From: Macrostomum lignano
Taxonomy: Eukaryota
Assembly: GCA_002269645.1 (NCBI GenBank)
Contig: NIVC01003808.1
Location: forward strand, 1-64,000
Reading direction: 5' to 3'
DNA length: 64,000 nucleotides
The notes beneath the pieces were generated by a model, which ran no database searches, was not told the DNA's origin, and was given only the letters and a program-made list of their open reading frames with translations. The translations under genes and the position numbers were made by a program. The first letter of the stretch is position 1; every line of letters begins with the position of its first letter. Positions 24,462-63,016 of the stretch are shown piece after piece.

Positions 24462-25658
24462 TCACTTCTTCTTGGCGGTGAGACCTGCGCCAGCGTTGAA
24501 CTTGAAGAAGATAATATCCCCGTCCTGCACCACATAGTCCCTGCCCTTCTGCTTGTATTTGCCTTTGGCTTTCACCTCGCTCTCCGAGCCGCACTCTTTA
24601 TAATCTTCGAAGCTCATAACCTCGGCCATGATGAAGCCATTCTCCATGTCGGAGTGAATCTTGCCGGCAGCCTGAGGCGCTTTAGTATTTAGCGGAATTG
24701 TCCAAGCTTTCACTTCGTCTTTGCCGGCGGTAAAAAAGTACTGCAGCTGCAGAGCCTTGTAGCCGGTTGAGATGATTTTGCCCAGAGCCGAGCTCACCCC
24801 GTGCTCCTTAGAGAACTCAGCCCTCTGCTCATCGGTCATGTCCGCCCATTTAAACTCCAGCTCAGCGGACAGCGGGATCACTGCGGCTCCCGGATCGTGC
24901 TGGTCAATCCACTCCTTGATCTTTGGCAACCATTTGTTCTTCTTCCGAATGAAGTCCTTCTCGCTCAGGTTAACCAGGTACACGATTGGCTTAGCGGTGA
25001 TGAACAGGTGCTCGTTGAGCAAATCGATTTCTTTGTCATTCCACTGCTCGAACCGAAGCGACCGTTTCTCCTCGACAACGATCCGGTGCACCTTCTGGAA
25101 GGCTTCAAACAGCGCCGTTTTGGACTTGTCGCCGCCGCGGGTGACCACCTTCTCCAGCTTCTCAAACTCCTTCACAATGTAGGCCTCATCTTTCAGCCGG
25201 AGCTCCTCGGAGATGATTTCAAGATCGCGGATGGGATCTACTTCGCCTTCAATGTGGGTGACCTCCTGGCAGTCGAATGCGCGCACCATGTGGAACAGCG
25301 CGTCAACGCCGCGGATATTGCTAAGGAAAGCGTTGCCAAGGCCCTGGCCTTCGCTGGCGCCTTTAACTAGGCCTGCAATGTCCCAGACATTGAGATAGGC
25401 GGGCACCCTGCTGGCAGGCTTCCAGTGCTCGCACAGCCATTCCCACCTGTCGTCTGGCACAGCCACCCGGCTCTCGTGCGGATCAATAGTGCAAAATGGG
25501 AAATTCTCGGCCGGAGCCGAGCTCTTCGTCAGCACGTTGAAGAATGTACTTTTGCCAACGTTGGGCAGGCCGACAATGCCGATCTTGAGGTTGCTGCCCA
25601 TCCGGCCAATGATTGGCGGGTTTTTCGGCTCATCTGCTCCCTTCTTCTTTGGCGGCAT
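24462..25658 (-). CDS. OLA1: Obg-like ATPase 1 (YchF/OLA1), intronless CDS, 398 aa
   Basis: [16 protein letters not shown] (G1), NFPFCTIDP (G2), [17 protein letters not shown] (G3), YLVNLSE (OLA1-type G4), and TGS-domain C-terminus [15 protein letters not shown]...[11 protein letters not shown]. Confidence 0.97.
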
Positions 25659-37292: not shown

Positions 37293-38258
37293 GTGACAGC
37301 TGCTGCTGTTTGACTCTCGAGTTGCAGGTGAAAGTTTTAATAAATTGATTGACTTGGCACTGGGAGAGCAAAAGTTGCAGCATAAATGCAGCAGCAAGTA
37401 ATTCAATACAATTGTGAAAATATACAACCCTTTAGATTCAATTTAGCAGCTATAAGGAGGAAACTGTCAGAGTCAGATGCAGATAAACATTGATTTTAAG
37501 TATTTCTTTATTGCAGAATTTTCTACAGCTTCTATAATACTTTATGAAGATAGGAAATTTTAAAAAGCAATTTAGTGCTAAGTGATACCTGATTTTGAAG
37601 AGGCTTAGTGTGTATAGATTTCTATTAAATATACCTAGACTATTGTGATAATATCTTTAAGATTTGTGCCATTTAAATAAATGCCAATTCATCAAATTAA
37701 CACTATCAAAATTTTGGCTTTCTAAAAAATTAGGCTGCAACAAAAGTTTTGAGCATTTTTGAGCATTTTGAGCACCCTATCCATAGCCCATAGTCCAGAT
37801 CATGGCAGGCGTAGGCTGGAATGAAAATTCATGTTTTTTAAATTTTATGCTGACATAAAATAAAAAATTTTTCACACCAAGACTAAAATTGTTTATATGC
37901 CATTTTTTCAAAGCATATATATTTTTAGGAATTCAAAACTTTTATTTAACTTTAAAATGGCTGTTTTTTGCTAAAAACTGAATATTGTTTGTTTTAATTT
38001 GGCCTTTCTTATAATTTTACGTTATTATTTTCAATTTTAGTTTGCAATTATTTTTAAAGAGCTTTCAATGTTGGTTGATATTTAACTACACAATTACACT
38101 AGCCTTGAACTTGGCTATTTTTGTATGCCGACTGTGTACACTTCATGTCAAACCTGAAAATTCTATATGCCAAGTGTATGCCAAGATTGTCAGCGAGACC
38201 AAAAATATGCCGGAAAATTCTGGCGAAAAGGCCACCTTCGAATGAGTATAACTTTGGC

Positions 38259-39245
38259 TGTCAACTTTTCTATCAACTATTCCATTAACTTTCTGTCAAC
38301 TATTCCATTAAATTTTCCATCAACTTTTCTGTCAACTATTTCATGAACAATTATGCAAGTCTGTTAACTAGATTCCATCAAATTTTCTGTGTACTCTGAA
38401 TGGAAAGTGATATTTTTCTGTATAAGTGCAGACTTTTCCTTTGCAATTTTTTATGCATGCTTAAATTGGTTGAGTATTTATGTATATGTATAAATTATAA
38501 ATAAATAACACACATGCAATTTTTTTTTCGTGTGACATACATGTTCCAGAATTTAAATGGTATTGCTGCACTATTTGCACTATATCTGCACTTGTTTTAT
38601 CGATTCATCTTTGGTAACTAGGGTAAATGGAAAAGATGCACATTTTTACTAATGTAGGCTTGTTTTTTCATTGATATATAAGCATACAAACAGTCAATAA
38701 ATGAGCAAAGAGCTACTCGCATGATGATCCTATTTGACAAAGTCACATGTTTTTCCAAACATTAAATTGCACTTTAATGAATGCATTTAAAGTGCAACAC
38801 TATACTTTTTTTAATTAAATACATAGGTTGCTAGAATTTTGCCCATCCCCTAAAAAAATATTGAAAGAGTTCTAATCAAATTATTTTTGCTTAATTGAAG
38901 TACAATAAACATGTCCTGCTAACAGTTAACTACATATGCTCACACAAGGACTTCTAGATTTACTAGACCAACTAGTTAGTCTAGAAGTCCTTGTGCTTAC
39001 AATTTACAAATAAAAATAACATTAATGTTTGAGCTTGGATGTCATACAGAATTATTTCACAAAAGTTGATAGATAAAGTTGAAGGAAAAGTTGACAGAAA
39101 AGTTAACAGAGAAGTTTATAGAAAAGTTGATGGAAGAGCTGACAGAAAAGTTGACAGATAAAGTTGTGTACCCTACTTATAGGAAAAGTTGATGGAAAAG
39201 TTAACAGAAAAGTTAATGGAAAAGCTGAAAGAAAAGTTGTTGGCC
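38259..39245. repeat. Oppositely oriented arrays of a ~12-13 bp motif (TGTCAACTTTTC at 38259-38345 and GAAAAGTTGACA at 39060-39245); foldback-like relic
   Basis: The motif arrays are reverse complements of each other; no clear termini or TSD. Confidence 0.5.
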
Positions 39246-42200
39246 AAAGTTATATTTGTACCTTCCTGACTATGTCCCATACCACAGGGCCTAGTCCAGA
39301 TCATGCTGGGTGCATGCCTGAACAAAAATTGAATAATTACAAATGCACACCAGAAAAAAATGTAGTGCATGCCCATTCTAAAAAATATGCCAGTGTTGCA
39401 ACAATAAATGACCTTTTTTACGTTGTGACAATAAAATACTTTTTTTTTAAATTAGGCCTACATAATAGACCCCTATTACTCTATTACCAAATAATTTGGT
39501 TGCTTTTTATGCTTTTTTGGCAATACTATTTATAGCAGAAAATTTAAACACTCAAAGATTTGTTTAAATACCCTTTTAAGAGCTTGAAAAAACTGGAAAG
39601 CTTGAAATTTGCACTTAAAAATGAATTTTTTTATCTTTTTTCTACTTCACAATAACTTTTACACGTGATTCTATAAAGTTCACACTAGGTATGCACGCAC
39701 ACTATCTTCTCAGGAATGATGCACATTGCACGCCAACTGTGCACGCCTAATTTTGGCATGTAAGGCCAATGCACACCCAAATTTTTGGGCATATACTACA
39801 TGATCCAGAGTGTGGGTCCCATCCCATAGCCATAGGCATAGGGTCTTACTTTTAGGGATATAGACTAGAAAAAACTTTTTAAAATATATTTAGATATTAG
39901 TATATAATAAATTCTTGTCTTAAAAATTTTTAAAACTACAAAAACTTTTAAGTTTATACCAACAAAAAACCCAATGTAGGCTTTATATTTGACAAGTCAT
40001 ACCTCATAGGACCCCCACCCCACTAAAGTCCCTATGCCAGGTAACAAAAATCATGACATGATGCCAATTGATGGTTATGCTGATGCCTATGAGGACTAAA
40101 AAGTGGTTTGGCAAAAAATTAAAGATTCAGACCTAAAGATTTTAAAGACCTAGGCCTAGTCAAAGCAAAGAAACTAGTATAGGTCTAGTTCAATTTAATG
40201 CACTGGATATCTATGTAATTAAAAGGAAGTTGTTTGATTGGCGATTACACTAGGCCTACTGACTAGGTTAGCCTAACATGTTAGACGAAGTGTTTAACTT
40301 CGTTGAAAAATGAAACTCTCCATAACTAGAGGGAGATACGTGCTATAAAGTTTTTATTATTGAATGACAATCGCCAAGAAGAAAGTGAAAGATTGTGCTA
40401 AGTTAGGTTGTTAAGGCAGTCAAATATTAACAGAGTTTAATATTTATACCGCTGTTTTTCTTGGAATTCCGAACCGATTCTGGTTCTGGAATTGGTAATG
40501 TGAAAAGGCCCATTGAGAGATTCCCCGCGCTCTTTAACCTGGCGAAAATGATGTTTTTAAGTTCCTTCATGATGACTCACTCGTTATTTCACGATGTTTT
40601 TTTATAATATATTATAAATGCACTTTTCATTACAATTTTGCTCTTCAAAAGTCTATGCTCTTACCTTTTAGTATTGCAATGGCCGCCCTAACTTTATAAC
40701 TTAAGAGGAATCAATCTTCATTCGTCCAAATAAACTGCATACCAGTTTAATATAGTATTCGTTTCTTCTTGAAGCCAAAATCTTATTTAGAGCCTACGTT
40801 ATATTTTAATTGCAGATACATAAAGACTAAAGATTATGTATATTTATGTTATTTTCTAGTAATCGTGCATACATGTTTATTGGCCAATCGTCCTAAAGAG
40901 CCTAAAAATAACTATAAAAATTAGGTTACTTACTTTCTTATGTATTTATAATTTATCATTTTGCAAGAGCTGCACCTGATATTAAAAAACGTATTCATTC
41001 ACGCATTTGCATGTAGCTACTCCAAAAAAAGCACATTCTGACAATTGCATTCGGAAAGATTCGCGTATACCGAAACCTATACATTTAAAGTATAAGTATA
41101 GGCTGAAGCCTATAGTGTCGTATACAACCAAAGTATAAGTTCTAGTTAAACACATAGGTTGTAATAAAAATTTCAAGGTAGAACAGTTGAAAAATACTGA
41201 AACATTTTTGAGATAAAACGATTAATTTTTTAAGAAGTTATATTAGTTTGTTTAAACTGAATAAGAAAGTTTAAAATACCAACTGATTTCCTGGAATGTT
41301 CAGCCCGCGCTGGGAACGGTCGAACGAAGTGTCAGTGTCAGCAAATGCTGAAAATGCTGATTGCATCGGCAGCACTTTTGCACTTTAGCTACCTAAGGAT
41401 TATTGATACTTGAAAATGAATTGATAAAAGAATTTACTAATTTAAGAAATGTATATTGTTTTATACATTTAGTTTAAAATGTATTAAATTGCTTCTTACA
41501 ATTTTATTTCTAATAGAAATTTTCTATGCTATGTCACGTATCTGACTGATGTTCCGATGGAATGGTATCAATAAAACATTGTCATTAATTGGCCTGGTTG
41601 GCTCTCTTATATTACCTCATCTTAGATCCTATCTTATTTCACTTAAAACTAAAAGCGCTATACTTGTCAAACTATTTCCAATTGCCAATTAGAATTAGAT
41701 TGATTTAAAAATGCAATATAATAGAAATCAGGTAAAGTAGCTTGCTTGGCAAATAAAATAAAAAAAAATCCAAAAATCAACATGTGGTTTTTTCACACAC
41801 CAAGGTGCATTGTCAGGTATATTGTTTGAGACAAAAGGTGTGAGTAAGCAAATTTATAAATTATTTGTCAATGAAACGTATGTTAGTATGTAGCTGGTGA
41901 GTAAGTATTTTGTTTATTATAGCTTTGTATTTTGTTTCATAGCTGGTGAGTCACCCACCCTTAATACGCAACTCCAACACAGTGGTTCAGGCCATGTTTT
42001 TCGATTCCAGGTATTCTTAGTAAGAGAGCATTGACCTTGTTGTAACCACTGCTCACTCAATTATATTTTGTTTTCTACCTATTGGACATAGTCAGGAAGG
42101 TGTCCAGTGTATGCAAGAACTAATTCTGGGCAAAATTTAGCCTGTACGCCAATGTACGCCAATTTTTTTAGCTTCATTTCGAACATTACGCTGTACACTG

Positions 42201-42731
42201 AAGTCCTTTTTCCGTATTTGAAATTGGATTTTACGAAAGAATGGACTACTTTATTGCATGCAACAATTTAAAAAAGTTGAAAACAGAAACAAATAAAACA
42301 ATTCTTTTTTCACAAAAGTGCAAAATAACAATCTTTAGAAATAGTTTTCCATTATCTGCTTACTTTTTATTATTCTTTAATTTTTTCAATGGCCATAAAT
42401 CAACAAAGACATATGATACAATGCAAATAAGATTGAATATGATTTGTAAAAAAGGTCACTGTGCAATTGCTTACGTATATGGACAGTGATTATGATGCCG
42501 CCAGTAAAATTGGTACACTGATTTTGTCGTTCTGTTGTGTGTATACGCAGATACGCAAGTTTTCTAAAGATCTATATGCTGAAACTGATTCTAACGGCCA
42601 AGTGTATGCGGGATTATTCCTGCGTACGGACACCTTCCTGACTATGGCCTATTGGTCTTTGCCTTGCCTTGCCCTATGGACTATTAACCTCCTATTACTC
42701 TGTACATACAAAATACTTACTCACTAGCTAC

Positions 42732-43475
42732 TGTGACAGGCCTTTTGGCTCTGTCTTTCTAAACTTCTAACTATTAGTGTTTATTAAATATCCTACGAGC
42801 TGCCACCAAAGTTGTTACAGGCCTTTCACCTCTTACTTTATCAATTTTAATCCCACCGATTTGCCAACTACAGTTATCCTGATTATACTTGCTTTTACTC
42901 CCTAACTATTTCTTAGAATTTCATTTAAATATTTCTGGGTAGCGTTCTTAGTAGCGTTTCTGGTAGCTTATGGCTTGCTTTCTGGTAGCGTTCTAGTAGC
43001 TTATGGCCTGAGCGGTCTAGTACTGGTATATGTATTAGTGTATAGTCCTAATCGGGCGTTCACCGAGACTAGAGGGTCACGGCGCCTCTCTTGGTATATC
43101 TCCAAGAATTAGTCCCAATTCCCTTCTCTTAGCAAATTTCTTAGAATCGTTTCACAGGTTTTGCAAATAAATAAGTCGCTATTTAGCTCAAAGACTTTGA
43201 AATGGTTTAGATTGAACTGCTTATTCTGTTCGCAATTATTTGCTCACGAGTAAAAGACAGTTAGAGTATATTTGTCGCGAAACCGCTCCTATATATAGTG
43301 ATTTCCCCCACATACGATTAAAACAAAAAAATAATTCTCCAATTTATTTCACGCATTAAAACAAACTATTATTTGGCGTTCGCGTAGATTCAGTTTCTAA
43401 GAAAGATTCAAATATACAGTTATTACATTGAAAGAACATTTGAGTATACTATGATAAAGGCATAGCACTAGTACA
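42732..43475 (-). repeat. 3' LTR (744 bp)
   Basis: Near-identical to 49581-50324; preceded on the minus strand by the PPT AGAGGAGGAAAGT (43488-43476). Confidence 0.95.
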
Positions 43476-43761
43476 ACTTTCCTCCTCTATATATCAAATT
43501 TTGAACGAAATACTATATTATATGTATACAGTGAAAAATTGATATCGTAGGAAAATGTAGGTGAAAAGGTGCAAAGCAAGGTGCAGAAAACACAATTCAG
43601 TGCTAAAACAATTGGTGCATAAAATGGTTGTGATAGAACTATTATGTAGGTAAACCATTAAAGTGAGAACTATTATGGAAGCAAAACGAACTATTATAAA
43701 AGTATTATAAAAGGCAAAATTGTTATTAAAGGCAACGCAAAAGTTAGTTCACCTCAATAGT

Positions 43762-46700
43762 TCAGATAAACATGCAGGGCTCCGGGAGGTCGCGATAGTA
43801 GGGCCAGCCGACTTGAGCGAAAAACCATCGGTACTCTTCGTCGAGGACCGTCAGCGCTGGCGGCGGGTTGGCTCTTATAGCTCGCTGGAGGCGATAGGCG
43901 ACGTCCTGGAGAACAGCGACAGCTTCCTGGTAACTGAATTGATCCCTTAGAAACTTCAGGTGTGTCCAAATTTGCGAGCATTGGGGGTAGCGCTGTCGGC
44001 TGTCGGATAGGGGGCGACCCAGTCCCGGGCCCGGGCCCGAAAAGTCGGGAATCCCGACCAAAATCGTGGCCCGACCCGGGCCCGGGCCCGAACCTAAAAA
44101 AGTCGGGAAATCGGGACAAGTCTTTTTTCCCTAAAGGCACTAACCGCGTGCGAATAAGAAAAAATTATTTTTCAACACATTCACACTAATTTACCCTTAA
44201 TTCCAGCCCCAGGAAAATGCAACTGCAACTGCAAGGCATGACTGCATGAGGCATCTCTGTCTCTGGTCGGTCACTGACCTCACCTCGACCTCACCTGACC
44301 TGACTGTGAGCGGTCTGTGATTCTATGAAGCTGTCGGTCACTCACTGTCACTGGTGACTGGTGTCAGTCAAGCTCAAGCCTGTCTGCCCTGCCCCGGCTG
44401 TCCGTGAAGTTCGGTGATGTCTGGTGCTGCTCCCATCCCGATTCCCGATGTCCAGTCCAGGTCCAGGCTGCCAAGTCCGAGTGCCGATGCCGACTCCCGT
44501 TCCCGTTCCGTCACCGTCCTGAGTCTTGGACAGCTGGACTCCTGTCCTGAGTCCTGACTCCCACTCGAGCTTGAGTCAAGTAACCCACTCACTTAACTAA
44601 ACAGTCAGATTCGAATTTTCGAGTGTACATGTACGACAATAAAATTACATACTGTTCAAAATTGATGATACATATCATACAATATACATACAATATAGAT
44701 ATATGTATATATATATATATGTAATACTGATAGACTGATAGTGATATCATATCTGATACCGATTTATTGAAATTGACATCGTAAAAGATTACTGACTTCT
44801 GAGTTTTGACTTTTTCCTTTTTTATCACTTTCGTTTCGTCTGGACTCCTGGAGTGGAGAAGAGAAGTTGAGTGGAGGCCGAGGCCCGAGGGTGGACTGGA
44901 CTGGACTTTGAACTTTCTGGGCTCGTGGAGTGGAGTCGTGTCGTGTCTGAGGCGTGAGTCGTGACTTGTGACTGATTCGTGATTCGCGAGTTTTGTTTTG
45001 ACCGTGACGGTGACTCGTGATTGTGTAGTGACTCGTGAGTCGTGATCGTGACTCCGTAAGTGATGGACTACAGACGGAGTGCTAAAAATCACTGCTAGGC
45101 TAGTGCTATAAGTATCGAGTAATTATTACTGTCACTTTCGTTAGAATTATACAGTGTAGTGTAGTGTACTCTAATCAATAATCATTTCATCGTCATCCGT
45201 CATGTCAGGTCAGTGGTCAGGACTCAGGACTCAGGATCAGGACAGCACAACACTCAGTTAAGCATCGCATCAGTAATAGTAATAGATTTAGTATATTTAG
45301 ATGATATGATGTGAAGTAGCAATATCATTGATTCGTAGTAGGCTCTTAGCGTGAGCGTCTGTGACCGTGAGCGTCAGCCACAGCCAGTTTCCACTTTCCA
45401 GGAAGATCGGATTTTTTTCCAGGAAGATAAAATTAAAACATAGTTTTGCAATACTTTTTTGCAATATTGATTCCACTTTACACGCTGCAGGCTGCAGCCT
45501 AAAAGCAAAAATATGATTCTTTAAAAAGTTTATTTGTCATTTTTAAGCTTTTGTAAATAACATTTCCTATTTACATTCCAAGAAGGCTACCATTTTTCCA
45601 AGAAGTTTGCTATCTATTAGAGTTTGTAATCGTGTTCATATTTGTATCGTAGGTAGTCGTAGTCGTAGACTTGTAGTATCGTATTCGTAATCATATTCGT
45701 TTAAGTAGGTAGGTGAGCAGGTAGGCAGGTATCAGCTAATTACTTGTATTTCCATTGTCTGTTTGCCTGTTCTGTTGAGACAGTTGAGTGTTGTGTTGTG
45801 TTGTCACTTCACTTGTGTTCTGTTCTGTTATCTTGTCTTGTTGTCTTACTGAATACTGACTGTGTACATGGCTCTTTACATTGAAGCTATGTAAAGGATC
45901 TAAAAATTCAAATAAAAGAATCAATCAATTGATTTGGTTCTTACTTCCTTACTGCTTCCTATGCCAAGTGCCTTATACTTAATGCTTCAGCTTTTCTTCT
46001 TTTGCTTACTGCCACTGCCAGTGCCAGCCGCACTGCCGCAGTGACTGCTTGCCTACCTCACTGCTTGTTAGTATCACTGTCACTGGCACACACACAGTAC
46101 TTGTGCCACACACTCACACAGTGACATTGAATTTGAACTATTGAGTATATTGATATTTGAGTATTAAGTCTTTTAATGTAACTCTTATCTTATTCTGAAG
46201 TCTTAACTAATGTATTAAATAATAATAATATTTATTGTATATTTATTATATTTAAATTTAAATATTTATTATATTTAATATAATATATTATATTTATTAT
46301 ATTTATATATTATTATATATTTAATATATTTATATATTATAATATATTTAATGTTTATCATATATTTATTATACCTTTAATATATTATATTAAATTTAAT
46401 ATATTGATATATTTATTATATATTTAATAGTAATCCGCATATGCTAAAAGTATTAAGATTTATTATGATTTTTTTCCAATTATTGAGCTGTCCTAAAGAT
46501 CTTGTCCCGAATTCCCGAGGCCCGACCCGGGCCCGAGTCCTCATTCCCGGGCCCGACTTTGGCCGTCCCGGTCGCCCCCTACTGTCGGATCGGTGGTACG
46601 CTACTTTCAGTGCGTATTGCTCAATGTGGAAGCGTAGCTTTTCCACCTCTGCTCCGCGAGTCTCCACAAGTTCTCGGACGATGCGATGAAAATCTCTCTG

Positions 46701-47218
46701 CGAATTCGATTGCTGCTGGCTCGGCTGTAGTGCTGATGGCTGGCTAGACTGCTGCGCTGATTGCAGGCTCGGCTGCAACGCTGACTGCTGCGCTGATTGC
46801 AGGCTCGGCTGCGACGCTGGCTGCTGAGCTGGCGGTGTCGCAGCTGTCGATTTCTTCTGCCGTGGTGCCGGGGTCTTTCTCGATGATGGGGCAGCTGGCG
46901 GTGACACCAACTGCTGCGTTCGGCTTGATGTCGACGATCCTGGCGTGGCCTTGACAACATAGGAGCGCACGGGCGCAGCTGCCTGTGCTGCCACCAGGGC
47001 GGCGCGCTTCTGCTCGGGCCTTCGACCCTCATTTGGCGGCAAGGCGATGAAGCTGGCGATGATGTTCTTGGCCGTTTGCTGGATACACCAGGCGCCTTTG
47101 GACGTGTTGCACATCGAAGCGGTGCCTCATTTTCGTCGGTGTTGGGCGCTGGCTGGGGCTCCATATCGTCTGACAGATTGCCAATTAACTCGTCCAAGAT
47201 ATCAATAGAGTTGTTCAT
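43762..47218 (-). pseudogene. Accessory ORF of the LTR element, unknown function, split by the hAT insertion and probably frameshifted near 47000
   Basis: Removing 44008-46581 plus one TSD joins ...ALKVAYHRSD|SRQRYPQCSQIW...PEPCMFI* in frame, giving 256 aa from ATG 47114. An upstream ATG at 47218 (CAAAATG) starts in another frame. Confidence 0.7.
44008..46581. mobile_element. Non-autonomous hAT-like DNA transposon, 2574 bp
   Basis: Perfect 12-bp TIRs TAGGGGGCGACC (44008-44019 and 46570-46581), perfect 8-bp TSD CTGTCGGA (44000-44007 and 46582-46589), subterminal CCCGGG/TCGGG motif clusters at both ends; no transposase ORF. Confidence 0.92.
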
Positions 47219-47301
47219 TTTGATTTCTCTGCGAATGGCTCTTAGAATAGAAAGGAAGCTAGCAGTGAGCTATGGGATCTGTGGGGCCTGCAGGGTGCTC
47301 G

Positions 47302-47369
47302 TATTTATAGGCTGGCGGGCCGAAAAACTGGACCTCTTCGAAGCACTCCCCTCGCGCGTGGGGCGGGGC
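47302..47369 (-). promoter_or_regulatory. Candidate internal Pol II promoter: TATAAATA (47309-47302) and GC box GGGGCGGGGC (47360-47369)
   Basis: The TATA box lies about 85 nt upstream of ATG 47218 and the GC box about 50 nt further upstream. Confidence 0.5.
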
Positions 47370-47619
47370 ATGCCAGATTTGACAGATTTGACAACTAAAT
47401 TTTTATGGATTTTCTATTTCTTTTTATAACTTTTTTTATTTTTTGATAGATTTTCTTGAGTAAAGTATCAAATTAAAGATCGCATTTTGTAGATTAATAT
47501 GGTATTTACAGATTCGCTCTATGTACAGCATGTCAAATTTTATAAGCAGATAAGTAATTTTAATACGGAATTTTAACTATTTAACACTGTTTCTTATGGG
47601 AAATTGCTTACGTCATGAT

Positions 47620-48260
47620 TTAAGGTGCTAAATATTTCGCGTAGCGCCTTCGGGGCACAAATCCTGTCGCGCCTTCTCTTTCTCTCCTTCGCTGAGTCAT
47701 CCTAAAGTTATACCTATTCTCTGGCTGAACTCGTTCCTCCTCTAACTCTAATGCTCCTTCTTCTTCTTCTGATGGCTCATCTGAGTCAGTCGCTCTCTCT
47801 GTATTCTCACTGTTCAATTCTTCATTTCCTTCGTTTTCACTCTGCGAATTCGGATCTGCGAATACTCTCCATTGAATTCTGTTTTCTTCGTCTGAGCTTT
47901 CCTCCTCTAAAATTTGAACTTCTGGAATTCTAACTTCTTTTTGTCTATGGCAAATTCTTTTCTTCGGCTTCGGCTGTTCCTTCTTCTTAGTTGACACTAT
48001 TGCTGGTTCTAAATTATCATTATTAATTTCTTCTGGTAAATCAATTTCGGATTTCGGCACTGGAGTCAGATTATTACTGTTTTTCTTCGAACAATTTTGC
48101 AAATTCTCACAGCTTCTCTTCGAAATCTCATCTTCATTTTATCTCATCTCAACTCAACAACTTCTCGACTCAATATCTCAACTCGACCCTGACCTCTCGA
48201 AAGCTTCTCTGCTGAACTCATGCCAGCTACAGCTCTACTGTCACGGGTCCTACAACTCTT
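47620..48260 (-). pseudogene. Possible remnant of integrase C-terminal tail
   Basis: Acidic disordered ORF ending ...ENRYNFR... and an upstream RVVGPVTVEL fragment with stops, reminiscent of the GPY/F region. This is inference only. Confidence 0.35.
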
Positions 48261-48900
48261 AACAAATTCTCAAATCTCGAATCTCCTTCCGCTATCTCAG
48301 TTTGGCCTCGTCAGTAGAATCATAGAAATTCTGTATTAATCTGCTCTTTAGGCCTTACTGCCCTTCCTTTCCTGCATGGCCTGACTCTCTGAACCTTTTT
48401 TGGCTCTTCTGAAAGCGTCATCGGCCTCTTCTTTCTGCCTTTGGCCAATCCGCAATTGGTCAGCATGCGTAGCTGTCCGCGCGTCATGCCAATCTCTGCA
48501 ATCCAATCTTTTCGACAATTCTCTTCGCACAATTCTGCACAGTTCTCTCAGCATCAACTTCTCGTCAACTTCTCTGAGTAAAATAATCTTCCTTCAATGT
48601 TTTCAGTCCGAAATTGCAGTTCCCTGGCTTTCCTAAATAAGTTTTTTAGTAAAACGGCCCTTTTAAGGTCAAACGGCCCTTTTAAGGGTCACCTTCCTAA
48701 AATTTAATTATTTTATTTCTTTTAGACAGCTTATTGCCTTGCAACATGCCAACAAAATACCTCTTAATCAAATGTTTTTGGGTTTTTCTGAATTTTTTAT
48801 TCGTTTTTATATTTATGCATATATATTTGAAACATATTTACAGATTTGCTTTACAGACACTTTTAATTTGCTGATTCGCTTGAGTTCGCTCACTTTCTGA

Positions 48901-49479
48901 TTATGGCGGCTTCTGCTGGGCGTACCGATTGAAGTTGATTCGGCACTGGTGTCCTGCTTGAGGCCTAATGGGTCCTGGCTGGTTGCAGAAGAAGCAGTGA
49001 CCAGGTGTCGGCTCTGGCCTGATTCCACTGAATCTGTTCAGGCGGCGCGGTCTTGGCACTGACTGCTGCTGCTGCCCTGTCTTTGGTTCTAGGCTAATGT
49101 TCGTTAGCACGAAGGTCAAGGTCATTAGACACTCTACTAATGCATCAATTCCCTCTTTTCGGTTCTGCTGCTTCGGCTCAAATTCTTCGATTATTCGTCG
49201 CCTAATTTCCTGATACTGACTCTGCTCTTTTCTGTGACTGATTCGGCGTTTCAGTCCCTCTGGGATGTTTAGATTAGCAAAGAGAGCTTCCTTCTGTTTC
49301 TCGCCTGTAATCCCTTGGATTCTGCACTGCTGCTCAAACGTGTTCATCCACTGCCTAATGTTCTGACCAGGTGTGAACTTTTCTACTTGCACTTCAGCCT
49401 CCTTCGATCCTAACTTGAGATGTTTCCTCAGTTCCTCTGCCAGCATGGCGATGGCATCATTAGCCTGATTCTGATTCAT
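48901..49479 (-). CDS. Retrotransposon Gag-like protein, 192 aa, with degenerate zinc knuckle
   Basis: First ORF after the PBS; capsid-like VEKFTPGQNIRQWMNTFEQQC...QKEALF and CFFCNQPG knuckle start. Confidence 0.75.
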   Translation of the reverse strand: MNQNQANDAIAMLAEELRKHLKLGSKEAEVQVEKFTPGQNIRQWMNTFEQQCRIQGITGEKQKEALFANLNIPEGLKRRISHRKEQSQYQEIRRRIIEEFEPKQQNRKEGIDALVECLMTLTFVLTNISLEPKTGQQQQSVPRPRRLNRFSGIRPEPTPGHCFFCNQPGPIRPQAGHQCRINFNRYAQQKPP

Positions 49480-49567
49480 CTTCTCTCTATGAAAAACTTT
49501 TCAAATTATTCTTCGGAATTCTTCTGAATCTAGTTTTGAGAGTTCGCGCCGTTTCTCTAATCCTTAT

Positions 49568-49578
49568 CGCTGCCACCA
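49568..49578 (-). other. Primer-binding site TGGTGGCAGCG
   Basis: Two nt from the 5' LTR; complementary to the 3' end CGCUGCCACCA of eukaryotic tRNA-Leu (recalled sequence). Confidence 0.75.
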
Positions 49579-49580
49579 GC

Positions 49581-50324
49581 TGTGACAGGCCTTTTGGCTC
49601 TGTCTTTCTAAACTTCTAACTATTAGTGTTTATTAAATATCCTACGAGCTGCCACCAAAGTTGTTACAGGCCTTTCACCTCTTACTTTATCAATTTTAAT
49701 CCCACCGATTTGCCAACTACAGTTATCCTGATTATACTTGCTTTTACTCCCTAACTATTTCTTAGAATTTCATTTAAATATTTCTGGGTAGCGTTCTTAG
49801 TAGCGTTTCTGGTAGCTTATGGCTTGCTTTCTGGTAGCGTTCTAGTAGCTTATGGCCTGAGCGGTCTAGTACTGGTATATGTATTAGTGTATAGTCCTAA
49901 TCGGGCGTTCACCGAGACTAGAGGGTCACGGCGCCTCTCTTGGTATATCTCCAAGAATTAGTCCCAATTCCCTTCTCTTAGCAAATTTCTTAGAATCGTT
50001 TCACAGGTTTTGCAAATAAATAAGTCGCTATTTAGCTCAAAGACTTTGAAATGGTTTAGATTGAACTGCCTATTCTGTTCGCAATTATTTGCTCACGAGT
50101 AAAAGACAGTTAGAGTATATTTGTCGCGAAACCGCTCCTATATATAGTGATTTCCCCCACATACGATTAAAACAAAAAAATAATTCTCCAATTTATTTCG
50201 CGCATTAAAACAAACTATTATTTGGCGTTCGCGTAGATTCAGTTTCTAAGAAAGATTCGAATATACAGTTATTACATTGAAAGAACATTTGAGTATACTA
50301 TGATAAAGGCATAGCACTAGTACA
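49581..50324 (-). repeat. 5' LTR (744 bp)
   Basis: Followed on the minus strand by the PBS. Confidence 0.95.
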
Positions 50325-53300
50325 CTACATACATTTCATTGACAAATAATTTATAAAATCGCTTACTCGCACCTTCTGTTTCAAACAATATAACTAACAA
50401 TGCACCTTGCTATGCAAAGAAAAAAACTACATATTGATTTTGGGATTTATTTTCATTTTAATAGAAGTTTTGGCAATTGTCAAGTTCCATTCGTTAAATT
50501 ATTTTAACTCTAGAAAAGTATTATACAAACTGTTTTAAGTACAAATAACTACTTTTAAGAGACTTCAGTTTAATTAGGCACTAATTCTATGCTTTAAGTT
50601 CAAAACTTGTTGTAAATATAATATATCTGACATAGAAAAGCTGCAATAGTCTATGGCTAAAATGTTAACAAGTGAACAAGTCTTGATAGAAACAAATAAA
50701 AAGTATTATTATTGATGGTCAAACTGCCAATAAATAGCAAAAGCTTTAAAATATAGAATTAGTGCTTAATCAGGCTTGTCTCTTAAAAGTATTTATTTTT
50801 ACTTGAAACAATTGGTATAATACTTTTCTGGAGTCAAAATAATTTATTGAACAAAACTTGACAATTGCCAAAGTTTTTTATATTTGACTTTTATAGAAGT
50901 CATATATTGTAAGGCCTAATTATATATAGTAGTTGTTATTATTATAGTTACCATATAAATAGCAAAACTTACTTTTAGGGTCAACGCATAAGATACATCT
51001 GGGCCTAGGGTCTTTATTTAATGTAACTAGGTGTTAAAGAATATTGAATTTATCAAGATTTTTTACTCCAAGATTTTATATTTTTTCAACAATACAATAG
51101 TCAATATGAGATTTGATCAAGATTTTAAGATATATAGGCCTAATTCAAATTAGACAAAGCTAAAAAATTGAAACTAGGCTTACCCATATAACTTTAGTTA
51201 AAATCATAACCTTTAGTTCATAAAAAAACATAGATTTTTTAGTTCATCATTTTTCTTAATATGGCTTAATCCATTAATATGGATGACACTATAATAGGTT
51301 GATTTTTGGTATTAATTTGATCGAATTTGAATACAATCTACTTTGGTATAGCCACTTTGGTAACTGCTACTTTAGTAATAAAAAATGACCACTTTGGTAA
51401 TAGCCACTTTAGTAACTAAGTAGATTTATGACTACCAATACTATATTTTTATGGTAATTAAGTTTAGGAACTATTAGTTTAATAGTTAACATTTAAACTA
51501 TTTTATTGCCTAGTGTAGTTTAATTTTCTATTTAAACTAAATTATAATTTGTTTAAATTTGTGCATTACTTTATAACAAAAATTTAAAGGTGACAGAGAA
51601 CAACATGCCAATGTCCAGTTGAAAGTTGAAATATTAAAGTGAATAAATATAAAATTATAAATGAAAAAAGTAGATTTGGTCAACAAAGTTGCTAACTCAA
51701 AGATTCTAATATATATTATATTTGGTCAACAAGATGTCTTAGTTTGTACATGTATCTAGTGCACCTAGAAATTAAAATGAAATTTTTTTGTAGATTAAAA
51801 TATACATTGTTTTTAGCTTTAATCCAAATCTTCAAGTTTTCAAGAACCTATTAATCAATTGTTTTTTGTTGTTCTTTCTTTAAACTTTGTTTGTAAAATA
51901 TTTTTTGAGCATATCAATCAATATATACTGCTATTTCCACTTGTTATTGAAGTGGCTATTATCAAAATGGCTAAATCTAAATTATCTAAATATAACTGTA
52001 TAAATAGCAAAATTATTATTTTTATGGTCATCGTACATAGAAATCACAATGGCTATTTTTACAGTCATGAGGAAAAATATCATTTAAATTAAAATGTAAT
52101 AGTTAATATTTATCCATTGTATCAATTTGTTGATTTAACACATTTTTTTTTAAATTTAGTCACCTTATTGTTCTTATTTGCATTGTAAGCTTGTTATTTT
52201 ATTTAGATGATATTTATTTTTTAAGTGTTGACTGTAAAATAACTATCTCACTTTTATATAGTCACCATAATAATAACAACTGCTATTATATAAATAGGCA
52301 ATCTACAACTACAAAATTATATGTTTGTTTAATATTAATTTAGTATGAATTTTCTTAATAAAAGTAATAAAAGTTACATTTTGGCTAGCTACTTTCAAGC
52401 TGACTATGGTTTATAGAGAAATTTCAGCTGTGACTAAGCTACCAAGCTTTTATTTATAGAGTAATATAGCTTATAGAATTATATAAAATGTATTTTGGCT
52501 AGTTCATATAGTCCCTTTTGGAAAAAAGTTGTTAAATAGTAGATAGCTATCTAGCATATTTTCAGTATGACCCTGCAATGCAGTGCATTTTCTATTAGGC
52601 ACAGTGTGGTGTAGCACAGTAGGATACTTTGTGTGTAGTGCTTAGAATCTATATCAAAATGGTCATATACAAAATTGACAAAATGTCAAAACATCAAAAG
52701 TTGGCAACATTTTTGGTATGCTCTGCATAGTAGTGCTGTTTTATTAGTGTGTTACCATTGCCAAAGCAATGGAGAATGTTAAAAACCTTTATTGTTACAC
52801 CTTACTCCCAAATCTTATATATATGCTAGAAAATTCTGGCATGTAATGGGCATGAAAAAAATTGGTATAAAGTATCTGGCGTAAGACATAATCTGCCAGA
52901 ATATTGTACTGCAGAGCTGGTATATAGCATAGCTGTTTGCATACAAAAGACCAAAATGTCATAATGCAAGACAGGGTTCTATAGTCCTGACTCCTATCTT
53001 GTTGCAAAGCAGAAAAGTCCTTTATTGTTCCAATGACTTTTTGATAATGTCTGGCATATGTATCATGAGTAAATTTGTTTTCTGGCATAAACCCAAATTT
53101 ATAGTTTAGGGGATATGAAGTCTAGCTCCAAATGACTAAGAATAAGATTATTCAAGTGTGTGTATGAGCCTCGCAGGCTAGCTCAATCTTGGTTTGTAGC
53201 TTGTTGCTGGGGCACCAGGCCCCAGGGTTCTTTATTTATTTCTCTGCTTCCCAGCTTGGGGGAATAAAACCAGCAGGCCTATGCTTGTTGGGGGAAAAGG

Positions 53301-56300
53301 GTGCAGATAGACCAACTTGTGCATAGGACTTGGACATGCATTGGCTGTACAGTAATGACTGTAATTGCTAGACAAAGACATATGCCTGGTGGGAGTGCAA
53401 GTAACAGATAGACATTACAGAGGGGTCACACTTTCTAGTATACCATGTAACAGATTTGATAATATAGTTATTGCAATGCTTCTTGGGCCTAGTGCACACA
53501 CATAGTGACCTTGACCCTAGATACAACACATGTACCTTAGAGAATGACCCCATTGGTGCATTTTTGCAGGATCCTTGATGCATGTATATGCATTTTAAAT
53601 TTATTCCAAAAGGGTATATAGTAGTAGGAGTAAAGCCCAAGTTTGGGCCAAGCCTACATTTGAAAAGTGAAACACTGCAGCCTTGGATTGCATACTATCA
53701 AGGTACCTATTATATTAGAATTATGTCTAGTGGCTAAAGTTTGGACTGCTAATTGCCTGCTAGTTTCTTTAAGACCCAAGAGTTTATATTCTAGTGTACC
53801 AATACCTATGTATATTGCCTATAGCTAGGAAATAAAAAGCAAAAAGAGTATAAAAAAAAGGAAAAGCTAGAAAAGTATCATATAAAATCTCAAAAATGAA
53901 AATAAAGTTAGCAAAAAATATACAACTTGTAAAAGTTGGTTCAAAAGACATCTAAGCAGATTAGGAAAAAGCTAAAAACTAAGCAAATAGATGAAGCAAA
54001 GCAACTTTTTAGAGATGAAAAAAGGCCAAGAAGGCTAAGGATCATGATCTATAAAAGCTAAGACAAGAACTTGCTAGGAAAAGACCTAGGAAGCCCAATT
54101 GCAGCACATAAGCATTTTGGTAGATGGCATCCAATGTGGATCAGCCTGGCTTAGTGCACCATGGCATGGCAGCATGGTATAGAGCAGTGGGAGGCTAAAA
54201 AACATGAGGCACTTTCTCCTCCCCTATGCATTGTGCCACTGCGGCGCAGTTAGGGTGTGGGTGTCTAGAGCACCTAAGCTATGCGCTGCTAGGAAGACAA
54301 GAAAATTGTAGAGGCTATGTATACATATTAGGTTTGCTTAATTTTATTACTTTTAGGTAGAAATGCACTTTTGTTTGCAGAAGTAAAACTACAAAAAATT
54401 TAAATTTGTATTGAGGTTTTAGTAAATATCCATGCTAGTAGTTGTTTAGTACTTGTAAATGTCAAAACAAGTATGGCCCAAAAAAGACTATGCCTTACTC
54501 CCATCAATGGGGGTTATGATCATGGCTGAAATTTGGCAATCAAAACTGAATTATCTACAAGGCAAAAGCATCTTTTAGACCAAAAAAAGTGATTCTTTGT
54601 TTGAGTTTCTATGCTCAGTTTTTTTTCAATTTCAAAGCATTTGCTTAGATAGTTGGGTCTATATTGTTTTTAACCACTGCTCCAAATTACAAATCTAGTA
54701 TAATGAATATTACTTAAATCCACATTTATATAGGTAATTGGTAATTTAGTAATTTAGAAGATATTCAATAATTTATAAAAAAAATTGAAGAATACTTTTT
54801 AAAAATATTATTTAAAAATATTTGTTTAATAGTAATAATTATTATTAAAAGGTTAATAAAACATGAAAAAAAGTAAAACAAAATAATAAAAATATAAATA
54901 ATAATAATAATAAAATATTACTTTTAAATACTTTTTCTTTTTGGTTATGACTAGGATCTTGATTAAACAAGTTACAGTTTATTTGTAAAACAAACAACAA
55001 AACAGTTTCATTTTGTCTAAATAAACTACATATAACAACTTTTTTTCGATATGTTTTTTCTAGTATATGTTGTCTTTCTATATTTTATAATAAATAATAG
55101 TTTGAATGTTTTATGTTTTGACCCCAATTGTAGCTAATGGCCATTATTGCAAATAATATCTGATATAGATTGGCCCCTTACAGTGGCACAATGTGCAATG
55201 ATTTTGCACTGCATATGGTAATAGCATATCATGCAGGGTAGTGGCATAATGTATAGTTTGAGCACTAAGAAGGGGTGTCTTATACACCAAATTGCTAATC
55301 CTTGGGACTTGCACTAGTATAAGAAAGGGAAGGAAGGCATCTAGTATAGTTCAGACCTTAACTGCAATAGAGGTCACGATTATCTTTAACTAGAATTACC
55401 TTATTGCTATTCATCGTTATTGTATCAACAGTATTTCAAAAAATATGATTCAAACCTCTAATAAGAAGAAGGTTTTCATTTTATTTATCTTCTAAATTGG
55501 CCAACAGTATGTTTTAATAGATTAATATATTATTTCTCAACTGTTGACATGGTAATAATGTACTGTAGTTCTCATTATAAGATTTATTAAATATAAATAA
55601 AACATGAGTACAAATACATGAGAGAAAAAAGGAAAGTATTATTTGTAGTTATGCTTGCACTTTTATAATATTCAGTTGTAGGTATCACTAATATTAGGGA
55701 ATAACTTTGTTACATTATGTGAAATACCTAGCAGAGCTAGCCAATCTAGCCATATAGCAAGGGGCTTAGCCAATTTGTTCAGTTGGTATTTTGCATTTTT
55801 GGTCAAAAAGTAAGTTGCATGGCCAATATCAATTGGGAGGTTGCGCATATATGTATTTTTTTATGCAATAGTTTACTAGATATTTTTTTAGATTTGAACA
55901 TTGGTAAAAAAGAGTATTGGTATTAGCTAGGGGTTAGATAGATCTCAACCTCAAATGCATCTTTAATATCAAATCCCAATGTTAAATCTCAACTATCTTA
56001 TCTCATTTTCCTATTTTGGTCTCAATATTGTCTTAAAACATAAATAAAGTTGAGGTTTAAGATTTTATATCTATAGCTTTCCCTTGCTCTATTAACCACA
56101 TTCACCAACAGATACCACACCCATATACAGGCCTATAGTACACATTAGCAATCTAGTGCCCCCCTTTGGGTCACCCAAAAAGCAAGAGGCAAAATATTTA
56201 TGTGAATCCTATTTTCCTTGACACCTAAGCAATCTATATACTAATTTTGCGCTGTTTCGTGCGTGCGTGCGTGCGTGCAATTGATTTTTTCGAGAATGGC

Positions 56301-56869
56301 TCAACCGATTCTCTTCAAACTTGCACCATTCGATCAGAAATTTTCCTGGGATGGTGCATGCATCTTGGCTAAGAAATTGATTAATATTAAAGGGATGAAA
56401 TATTCGAAAAACATGATTTTTTGCAAAGGTCAAGCAGCTCTTTCGACCTGAAAGGCATTGTAAGAATGCTAGAGAAAAACCTGACTGACTGAATTTCAAT
56501 TCTGATAAAGATTGCATCACAGCAAGTTGAAAACAGTGCCAAAGAAATGCACACACGACTTGATTTAAATTGCGTAACCATACTGCTAACTTAAATTGAG
56601 ACTGATACTGGCTGACTGAGAAATTGATTATGTCATAACTTTTTACTCTAACCGATTTGCTATAATAATTGAATTATAAGGGCCACAATTCATGTTCTCC
56701 AATCGACAAGAGATAGCCTAGATGCGAGCAGACTGGACTGCTAATTCAGCGACCTGGGTTTGAATCTTAGTAGTGCAAAATAATTTTTTTATTAAAACAT
56801 CCTAAAAACAAAATGCTAAATATAAAAGAAGCACAAACAAAACAAGTCAAACAAAAGTGGCACCATTTC

Positions 56870-57400
56870 AAACATTAAAGGCCACCATGTCAAACATATA
56901 TGTGACTCCATTTCTAACATTAAAGAGCCACCATGTCAAACATATGTGACTCCATGTCTAACATTAAAGAGCCACCATATCAAACATTAAAGAGCCACCA
57001 TGTCAAACATTAAAGAGCCACCATGTCAAACATCAAAGAGCCACAATGTCGAACATTAAAGAGCCACCATGGAGAACATTAAAGAGCCACCGTGGAGAAC
57101 ATTAAAGAGCCACCAAGTCGAACATTAAAGAGCCACCATGTCGAACATTAAAGAGCAACCATGTCGAACATTAAAGAGCCACCATGTCGAACATTAAAGA
57201 GCCACTATGGTGAACATTAAAAAGCCATCCTTACAGACATTAAAGAGCCACCACGTCGAACATTAAAGAGCCACCATGTCGAACATAAAAGAGCCACAAT
57301 GTCGAACATTAAAGAGCCATCATTACAGACATTAAGGTGCCACCAGGTCAAACATTAAAGAGCCACATGTCAAACACAAAACAGCTACCATGTCAAACAT
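56870..57400. repeat. 23-bp minisatellite TCGAACATTAAAGAGCCACCATG inside the Helitron
   Basis: About 22 units. Confidence 0.92.
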
Positions 57401-57409
57401 AAATGGGGT

Positions 57410-57770
57410 GCCTACTATCTTGGAGTGCTTGCTATCTGGAGATGCGTGCTATCTGGGGATGCTTGCTATCTGGGGGTGCTTGCTATCTGGGGGTGCTTGC
57501 TATCTGGGGGTGCTTGCTATCTAAGGGTGCTTGCTATTAGGTGGATGCTTGCTATCTGGGGTCCCTGCTATCTTGGAGTGCTTGCTATCTGGAGATGCGC
57601 GCTATCTGGGGGTGCGTGCTATCTGGGGGTGCTTGCTATCTGGGGGTGCTTGCTTTCTAAAGGTGCTTGCTATTAGGTGGATGCTTGCTATCTTGAGGTG
57701 CTTGCTATTAGGTGGATGCTTGCTATCTGGGGTGCCTGCTATCTGGGGGTGCTTGCTATCTGGAGGGTTG
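57410..57770. repeat. 17-18 bp minisatellite TGCTATCTGGGGGTGCT inside the Helitron
   Basis: About 20 units. Confidence 0.92.
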
Positions 57771-58023
57771 CTGTCCTGGGATGTTTTCTTTTTGCATTGC
57801 ACTTCATTTGAGCAGGTTTTCTATTGTCTATGTGAAGGCTTTATTTGGCCTTTTTGATACTTGTAGAGAGCCAGAGATTGTATCTAGATGCCCCCCATTG
57901 GGGGGCGAAGATTGCTAGTCCCCCCTAAAAGCCTTGGCATTTCAATAAATATAAATATTCTATATAATAATTGAGTCAGTAAACAATTCACTTAAAAAAA
58001 TTATGTATAACAATGTATGTGTG

Positions 58024-58301
58024 AACATACATGCGCAACAGTCGGCCGAGTCGGCCGATCCGGCCGACTGATTTGGCAGCCAACCAAGGAAGTCGCAAAA
58101 ATGCCCACCCAAAAAATACCCACGCAGTAGTACTAAGTAGCTGACGAGGCATTTTTGCCTGATAAGACAGTCATAGTTACTCCCGCCGTTTACCCAAAGT
58201 TGCGTTAATTTTGCTTTAGGGTTTTTTTACATGTAAGTCGCATTTTTTGTTAAAACTAAGTCGCACGGCCGACCGAATTTTGGACGTTGCGCATGTATGT
58301 T
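58024..58301. mobile_element. MITE, 278 bp
   Basis: Perfect 16-bp inverted repeat AACATACATGCGCAAC (58024-58039 and 58286-58301) with subterminal TCGGCCGA motifs; TSD not identified. Confidence 0.7.
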
Positions 58302-59341
58302 ATATATTGTGATGATCAATATGCAATACAATGTACATAATGCTAGAAGGGCCAAAGCTCAAGCCGATTGGCTGCAGAGGACAGAAGAACTGATTGGAGT
58401 GGGGGTTTAAATATTGCAAGGGCCGAAGGGTTAAGTTGGCTGGCGGGAGAGAGAGTACATTGAACAGTGGGGCTGACAAGAGTGTGCAGCGCACGGGGAC
58501 AGCTCACAGTATGTATCTAATATTATTTTTTGCATACAAAGACTAAGTATATTATTGTAAATGGCAATAATATTATAGGTTAAATTAAAATAAAGACAAC
58601 AAAAACTAGGCTTATGTTTTATGATTGAAGACATTAGAGAAAAGGTAATTGTTGTGTCTAGTAACTGATGTATTTGTCTTGTTGCAGATTATCTCTTATG
58701 GCTGATATTGCTTTTTAATAAATGCACTTCATGTCCCCCTCCAAATGGGAACATCGGACAAGTATAGCAAAACAGTTAAATTATGTCAGTAAACAGTAAA
58801 TGCACGCCAACTAGGGTCAATCTTAGCTAGTTCATGCCATAGCAAGTTTATGGTGCAAATCTGTTAGGTTGCTGCCTAATGCGTGAGCTTCATCTCAGCG
58901 TAAACATTGGATGCTGTCCATTGTCATCCGGGGTCATTGCCGGTGTAGCAGTAATCTTAAAGAGAAGTTAATGGTTTTTTAGCTAATAAAATAACAAACC
59001 AATGTACAAGGTTTTTTATGATAAAATTTTTTTTATAATATTAAAGTTCTAAAGTACAGCATTGATTAAATGTTCAAAAATTATATTCTTTTAGTTAGGA
59101 TATCATTTTTAATTTTTTAAAGAAAATGCTTATCTACTTCTGTGGCTAAAGTTGCAGTATAAGAAACCTCTATAGGTTTATTAATAAAATCTCTATGACT
59201 CCTGACTGGTCCATGTTAAGCGAAACTTAGTGTACTTTTATTTATGCATGACTAAAACCGTCTTGCCAATCAGACAATCCGTCCATTGAAAGCCAACATT
59301 CGCTATCGATAGCAGCAGAACAATAAAGCCATTGTAAGGCC

Positions 59342-62300: not shown

Positions 62301-63016
62301 AGCCGACCGCCGCTGGCGCTGTCACGTCCGACTCTGAGACCGGTTTGTCCTCACAAAATCATTTTTATCATGAAATTTTGTTTTTAGTACTCAAGTTATT
62401 ATCTTTTAATTAACCCGTTGATATAAAGGTAAGTAGAGATTTTTTAATTTACAGAATCTTTTGAAAGATTTGCTGCCAATTGATTTTCTTATATATTAGC
62501 ATTGAGTTGAGTAATCTATCAGTTGTTGTGTACTTATTTCTACTAACAGATATGCATGTTTGCTTAATATTGTCTTTTGTGTGTTACCTTACTCCAAAAC
62601 TCACCTGTTTGTTGTGATTAACATTGTCTTCGATAAAATTTGAAAAACTATCCACTAACAGACAGCTCAGTGCGGCAGCAGCCGCAGAAGCAGCAGCAGC
62701 CGCAGGAGCAGCAGAAGGCGAAGTCGCTTCAGCGGCACGAGTCTGACCGCCTCGCCGAGGCTCAGAGGCAGCTAGGTTAGTAGCGCTTAGACTGGCTTGG
62801 GCTAGGGCTAACACCGCAGTACTTTAGCTGTTGGAAGCTGGTGTAGATATTTATGTTCAGCATCCTGGAATCATTAATTAGTTAGTTAATTAATTAGTTA
62901 ATTTCTAATTAACCAACCAACCCGCGTTGGCGTGAATTCTTCCTAATTTTCAACAGCCACTGGCCCAGCTAAGAGCGCCACAGTTGACAGGGCCCAGTCT
63001 CAGCGTCTGGCAGGAG
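59342..63016 (+). CDS. ADD1: Adducin (hts-like), first 5 coding exons; continues beyond the window
   Basis: Exons 59342-59830, 60612-61643, 61880-62342, 62662-62775 and 62957-63016 with concordant phases. MDQRKRVSLILNSEAFKQELE, GERLLRCKLAAVYRL, class II aldolase-like head (HSARPDVRSV; ILIVRNRGAFALGETLEEA), RTGYAY and NPNQFAP. Confidence 0.93.
59925..60530. repeat. 21-bp minisatellite CAGCCATAAAGAATCGCCCCT in adducin intron 1
   Basis: About 28 units including a longer internal duplication. Confidence 0.93.

Follow-up and report, generated by a model that had tools for sequence, protein, structure and literature searches.

A broken accessory gene with a candidate internal promoter in a pol-less LTR retrotransposon of Macrostomum lignano

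An LTR retrotransposon of Macrostomum lignano carries, in the env position, an accessory open reading frame (ORF) that is dead in this copy and that, judging by its protein homologs, almost certainly derives from a real gene. This gene is probably family-wide in LTR elements rather than cargo, its linkage to LTRs being seen in this one copy. We tentatively propose that an accessory gene shared by the whole family, here present as a broken copy, likely has a promoter of its own and encodes a predicted soluble nuclear adaptor that would raise expression of the family in trans. The whole stretch of DNA analysed, called the window, comprises 64,000 nucleotides (contig NIVC01003808.1 of assembly GCA_002269645.1, positions 1 to 64,000), and the framework of the element within it is as follows.

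49581..50324, minus strand: 5' LTR, 744 bp, TG..CA, with TATATAT at 50146 and AATAAA at 49634
42732..43475, minus strand: 3' LTR, 744 bp, TG..CA, with 3 mismatches relative to the 5' LTR
42728..42731 (left) and 50325-50328 (right), no strand: target-site duplication CTAC, flanking the LTR element on both sides
49568..49578, minus strand: PBS-like TGGTGGCAGCG, TGG-initiated, 2 nt inside the 5' LTR
48901..49476, minus strand: ORF1, 191 aa, gag by position, with Cys-x2-Cys near its end
48139..48900, minus strand: stretch of ~760 bp broken in all three frames, a putative pol/integrase remnant
47620..48138, minus strand: acidic open frame of 172 codons, putative integrase tail
43761-43489, minus strand: AT-rich 3' untranslated stretch between the accessory ORF stop and the polypurine tract
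43476..43488, minus strand: polypurine tract (PPT), abutting the 3' LTR

The PBS-like and PPT-like sites orient the element on the minus strand. Inside, ORF1 is followed by the broken stretch and the 172-codon acidic frame; beyond an AT-rich spacer come the candidate promoter, the accessory ORF and the AT-rich 3' stretch. The PBS-like TGGTGGCAGCG presumably corresponds to a tRNA-Leu end. The PBS-like word TGGTGGCAG recurs near the 3' end of each LTR (49649-49657 and 42800-42808, minus strand), and short imperfect tandem repeats, GCCATAAGCTAC and GAACGCTAC, are found inside the LTR at 49767-49860.

With LTRs, target-site duplication and PBS and PPT sites present, and with no intact reverse transcriptase, RNase H or integrase, the element is a non-autonomous LTR retrotransposon. 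Apart from a hAT-like insert, its interior measures about 3.5 kb and is therefore too short for pol, and no Pfam match was found in three frames translated with X at stops. The LTR divergence K is about 0.004 (95% range 0.001-0.012), which makes the insertion young; as this age implies only a few interior changes, the loss of pol probably predates this copy, which was probably mobilised in trans. The labels 'gag' and 'integrase-tail remnant', which had been proposed from the letters of the DNA (hereafter the sequence-only reading), found no database support: neither ORF1 nor the putative integrase tail matched any entry, fold searches with the low-confidence predicted model of ORF1 (pLDDT 44) gave no informative match, and both labels are positional, aided by motif patterns. 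AATAAA words in the AT-rich spacers that follow ORF1 and the tail frame (47435-47440, 48712-48717 and 48796-48801, minus strand) could end shorter transcripts, by analogy with the sORF1 of the MDG1 group (excerpts of PMC11952523). The canonical heat-shock element (HSE), searched with the regular expression of PMC12801592, is absent from the LTR and from the whole window, and the family is therefore unlikely to be among the six heat-inducible M. lignano families reported in the excerpts of that paper.

The flanks of the LTR element (50325-56100 and 37600-42731) are AT-rich and CpG-depleted, with CpG observed/expected ratios of 0.12 on the right and 0.52 on the left, those of the LTRs and host genes being near 1, and they have the look of older repeat DNA eroded by methylation. 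Two arms of about 135 bp, in inverted orientation and 85% alike, are found at 41754-41887 and 50324-50460, the right one starting at the LTR edge; the LTR element may thus lie within or next to an inverted-repeat element older than itself. Another inverted pair occupies 50469-50597 and 50746-50872. Elsewhere the window holds an intronless OLA1/YchF gene of 398 aa (24462-25658, minus strand), which falls in a 90% cluster with two named members, both of them M. lignano proteins, and dense minisatellite arrays with units of 8-41 bp (1-37000 and 56860-60550), many of them apparently in introns. Three other frames are presumed by us to encode a BACE-type aspartic protease (5800-7740, minus strand), an Arp2-type actin relative (13777-14925, minus strand) and an adducin (59327-62413, plus strand).

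The accessory ORF lies between the putative integrase tail and the polypurine tract, on the same strand as the element, and is now divided into three pieces.

47018..47218, minus strand: N-terminal piece, beginning at ATG 47218, with an acidic amphipathic helix, EAPLRxxTRP and KRP, and a frame break at its end
46582..47012, minus strand: middle piece, with KRAA, an S/P/Q linker and the first two helices of the domain
44008..46581, no strand: hAT-like non-autonomous DNA transposon, 2574 bp, with a 12-bp perfect TIR and clustered subterminal CCCGA/GGGCCC motifs
43762..44007, minus strand: C-terminal piece, with the last three helices, an aromatic GWPYY tail and the stop codon

Translated separately, the three pieces contain no internal stop codon and total 283 aa, close to the ancestral length of about 290 aa proposed in the sequence-only reading, whose quoted accessory peptides all occur in the translations. 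That reading had also suspected a frameshift near 47000, which alignment to the homologs places at about 47015-47018, and had taken the C-terminal domain to become complete only once the hAT insert is removed; the homologs bear this out, since they run uninterrupted across the insertion site. The insert is bounded by a perfect 8-bp duplication, CTGTCGGA, at 44000-44007 and 46582-46589, and its longest wholly internal frame (177 aa) is without a Pfam match, which leaves it without a hAT transposase; its short TIRs and 8-bp duplication, together with the missing transposase, thus identify a non-autonomous, hAT-like element. Through the frame break and the 2.57-kb insertion, the accessory ORF is dead in this copy and cannot make protein. 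The frame break could be an assembly error. Words of 46582-49580 were present, at fractions of 0.68-0.84, in 20 of the 24 sequencing runs listed (6 studies, one organism), and no RNA dataset was listed among the carriers. Neither a TIR nor a duplication was found around the accessory cassette, and a nested-transposon origin of the cassette was rejected because its flanks share no word of 10 nt or more.

The descent of the ORF from a real gene is indicated by its homologs. The sequence-only reading had called for a search for intact copies, and at the protein level three lineages of uninterrupted homologs were found, two in M. lignano and one in a Logan cluster. When the C-terminal piece was used as a phmmer query against 1.84 billion representatives, seven matches were obtained, four of which were repeat proteins and were dropped. 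The other three (E 1.6e-14 to 7e-10) are P0004 (349 aa), one identical M. lignano protein with two gene numbers, Mlig016073g1 and Mlig008906g2; P0005 (90 aa), which is M. lignano Mlig008543g1; and P0006/P0011 (235/251 aa), the Logan cluster, on 5 contigs. Over the C-terminal piece, P0004, P0005 and P0011 are 51%, 47% and 40% identical to the window protein, respectively, and pairwise identity among the homologs is 49-60% in their last 90 aa. A profile search added no further homologs (2 of 7,999 candidates), and none from another named species was found among the 1.84 billion representatives or the 7,999 profile-scored candidates.

The similarity extends along the whole protein. P0004 matches all three window pieces in co-linear fashion, each window piece outscores 500 of 500 shuffles against both full-length homologs, and the acidic amphipathic helix, EAPLRxxTRP, KRP and K[KR]AA follow one another in an order that the window shares with both of these homologs. 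Conservation is concentrated in the domain and the motifs and the linker varies in length, which in these alignments is the pattern of selection on the protein. The ATG at 47218 is supported by P0011, which opens, at the corresponding position, with an acidic helix resembling that of the window ORF. P0004 has an N-terminal extension (residues 1-55) that is absent from the window and from P0011; its internal Met 56 aligns with the starts of both, and the annotated P0004 start may therefore be too early.

An identical protein under two gene numbers and a Logan cluster spread over several contigs would be expected of a multicopy element; the genome of M. lignano is also redundant, as a hidden allotetraploid (excerpts of PMC12801592), and a redundant genome can likewise yield identical proteins. 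The Mlig gene numbers come from a genome-guided transcriptome assembly (PMC5730564, in part). All three appear, in the class 'Non-Specific' and with no neoblast or germline mark, in the portion consulted of the M. lignano annotation table of PMC7336406, where the row for Mlig008906 is g1, not g2. These entries are indirect evidence that relatives of the gene are transcribed and say nothing of this copy.

AlphaFold2 modelled the natural homolog P0011 with a pLDDT of about 86-95 over most of residues 141-240 and below 50 in the linker, and the C-terminal domain is predicted to form a small bundle of five helices. Neither the pieces nor the homologs matched a Pfam family, and fold and family searches, of the kind that the sequence-only reading had proposed, likewise point to no known domain: they gave no clear fold match and none pointing to transcription or silencing. 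That the protein is not env-like and lacks a transmembrane segment, as had been claimed, also held on hydropathy, since the highest 19-residue Kyte-Doolittle mean is 1.02 in the window pieces and 0.67-0.90 in the three homologs, and no transmembrane or hydrophobic segment was found in any of them by this measure. The homologs contain 0, 0 and 1 NxS/T motifs for N-glycosylation, and F-type and gB-type fusion families were absent from the family-search matches listed, the P0011 model being a small helical bundle. Since the searches for a Pfam family, a clear fold match and a transmembrane segment all came up empty, the accessory protein is judged not to be an env.

The charge of the domain is near neutral. 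We read the basic motifs KRP and K[KR]AA as a putative NLS and the acidic amphipathic N-terminal helix as a putative activation helix; RxxTxP, a possible 14-3-3 motif, is left unclaimed. CaaX prenylation was considered and rejected, the Cys being the fourth-last residue of the window protein and P0011 but the third-last of P0004 and P0005. Together, the short docking helix, the basic motifs, the flexible linker and the neutral helical domain read as an adaptor.

Two features upstream of the accessory ATG bear on how the gene would be expressed.

47302..47366, minus strand: candidate internal promoter, with a GC box at 47366-47361 and TATAAATA at 47309-47302
47241..47269, minus strand: splice-acceptor-like site, with a branch-like CTCAC, a pyrimidine tract and an AG ending at 47241

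The GC box, TATAAATA and CAAAATG with the ATG at 47218 are all located where the sequence-only reading had put them. The GC box precedes TATAAATA by 57 nt, TATAAATA precedes the ATG by 91 nt, and no other ATG occurs within 120 nt upstream of it. When the 200 nt upstream were subjected to 20,000 dinucleotide shuffles, a GC box came to lie 10-100 nt ahead of a TATA in 0.2% of them (p about 0.002, in a test designed after the motifs had been seen), and of the 119 TATAWAW sites on both strands of the window, 2 have a GC box within 70 nt. These motifs slightly favor an internal GC-box/TATA promoter of the accessory gene, which we regard as a candidate. It is rather unlikely that the gene is expressed like an env, from an LTR-spliced or SL trans-spliced message using the acceptor at 47241, with the TATA being incidental or feeding a short outron. 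This acceptor, overlooked in the sequence-only reading, has 16 pyrimidines among the 19 nt before its AG, lies 23 nt before the ATG and follows the branch-like CTCAC by 24-28 nt; by its pyrimidine tract it ranks first of the 482 AGs of the element outside the hAT insert and within the best 22 of the window's 8,678, and donor-like sites are found in the LTR and just after ORF1. Trans-splicing affects 38.8% of M. lignano genes (PMC5730564, in part), the ORF3s of rotifers typically derive from spliced messages (excerpts of PMC5408684), and the env of Tor3a is spliced (excerpts of PMC4402516). However, a comparable AG arose in 15% of leader shuffles, and in 4% together with a branch motif, the promoter arrangement being the rarer of the two by chance, and neither of two putative host acceptors read in the window is rich in pyrimidines.

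In the proposed scheme of an internally promoted adaptor, accessory transcription would begin some 30 nt downstream of the TATA and run as far as the 3' LTR, where it would end, and this start would make expression independent of the LTR promoter. The two basic motifs would bring the protein into the nucleus, where its charge-neutral helical domain would dock not on DNA but on a partner from the host or the element, and its acidic amphipathic N-terminal helix would recruit an activator or displace a silencing factor. Because the protein would act in trans, a pol-less copy could still carry and use the gene.

Extra ORFs after pol, some of them internally promoted, are a known class that includes plant additional ORFs (aORFs), rotifer ORF3s and those of the Tor elements. 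By its position, its orientation and a frame that appears conserved at the protein level, the window ORF fits the sense additional ORF between pol and the 3' LTR (aORF-3S/ORF3). Like maize Grande gene23 and other plant additional ORFs, it lies between pol and the 3' LTR and has no similarity to known proteins; gene23 has its own promoter, a nuclear product and a suspected regulatory role, all of which are predictions for the window ORF, and it is antisense and from a plant, whereas the window ORF is sense and from an animal, with no known sequence link between them (PMC7264820, in part). The env of Oikopleura Tor3b and Tor4b is likewise a sense third ORF of an animal LTR element with an internal promoter, Penv, in or after pol, which in Tor4b is located in the intergenic space; its product, in contrast, is a transmembrane glycoprotein and its promoter has been mapped, while the window product is predicted to be soluble and its promoter is a prediction (PMC4402516, in part). 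The ORF3s of bdelloid rotifers also occupy the env position in LTR elements of invertebrates and are non-envelope genes specific to their families. They encode a DEDDy exonuclease, a GDSL esterase or coiled-coil proteins, mostly recognisable enzymes made from spliced messages, whereas the window ORF matches no Pfam family (PMC5408684, in part).

Three other systems, in which the element encodes a nuclear factor that works in trans, serve as functional models for the proposed role. Foamy virus Tas/Bet is expressed from an internal promoter, and Tas belongs to a complex retrovirus, in the partial sources consulted; VANC anti-silencing proteins belong to plant DNA transposons (excerpts of PMC13547354); and the sORF1 of the Drosophila MDG1 group lies upstream of gag (PMC11952523, in part). 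No sequence or fold match between the window protein and Tas, VANC or sORF1 was found. Among flatworms, planarian Burro elements carry accessory domains (excerpts of PMC6431247), and env-bearing elements are reported to have a gag-env-pol order with a gB-type env, unlike the window element (PMC13524379, in part).

The accessory protein family appears to be undescribed, although the LTR family may already be included in the earlier M. lignano LTR classification that PMC12801592 cites as reference 16, or among the consensuses of 131 of its 137 families. The combination of a sense ORF, a soluble product, a probable internal promoter and an animal host was not met in the literature surveyed, and nothing listed in the literature searches described a non-env regulator that an animal LTR retrotransposon encodes in sense and transcribes from an internal promoter. 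The three Mlig gene numbers occur in no full text searched and are absent from the supplements of PMC12801592, PMC5730564, PMC5816591 and PMC7806878, and none of the five short accessory motifs was found in the HSE-family sequences, among the portions listed.

That the ORF is instead a captured Macrostomum-specific host gene, or a retrocopy with its promoter, carried as cargo and having ordinary host paralogs as homologs, seems unlikely. Its composition is host-like, with a GC content of 0.57-0.58 (host genes, 0.55-0.63; LTRs and tail, 0.36-0.40) and a similar TpA depletion, and its homologs are annotated as transcribed genes. On the other hand, no other named species yielded a homolog in the searches above, the homologs form several lineages as diverged as their last 90 aa indicate, and an intronless gene together with its promoter would be hard to obtain by ordinary transduction of a spliced mRNA. 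Less likely still is a cytoplasmic adaptor for particles or RNA trafficking, which would bind Gag, genomic RNA or host transport factors and move particles to stem or germ cells. The GGDEF fold is alpha/beta. A degenerate env, or a bacterial GGDEF fragment captured horizontally, is highly improbable and largely refuted: the env position of the ORF, an Atlas feature match to GGDEF clusters (0.96, but with 144 of 256 features shared) and a 32-aa, 50% match to diguanylate cyclases are outweighed by the lack of a transmembrane segment, the presence of at most one N-glycosylation motif per homolog, the absence of an Atlas match for the natural homologs and of any tblastn match between these and the 80 loci bearing the GGDEF-type match, the all-helical P0011 model, the absence of GG(D/E)EF from the pieces and homologs, and negative Pfam searches.

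If the homologs prove to be host genes, the ORF would be a captured passenger only, and of small interest. For the preferred reading of a family-wide accessory gene, the setting is a favorable one. The functions of plant additional ORFs are unknown (PMC7264820, in part), and here the homologs are named and transcript-based, and the worm offers RNAi, transgenesis and assays with LTR reporters (excerpts of PMC12801592) as well as somatic piRNA silencing (excerpts of PMC4604429), so that the role of an orphan ORF3 is directly testable. A bolder version, which we consider improbable at present, holds that several diverged Macrostomum LTR families share this lineage-specific, internally promoted sense gene, and that it encodes a nuclear transactivator or a piRNA/chromatin anti-silencing protein with an unclassified helical domain. 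If true, it would give an invertebrate retrotransposon a regulatory circuit like that of foamy viruses, one that even pol-less copies have kept.
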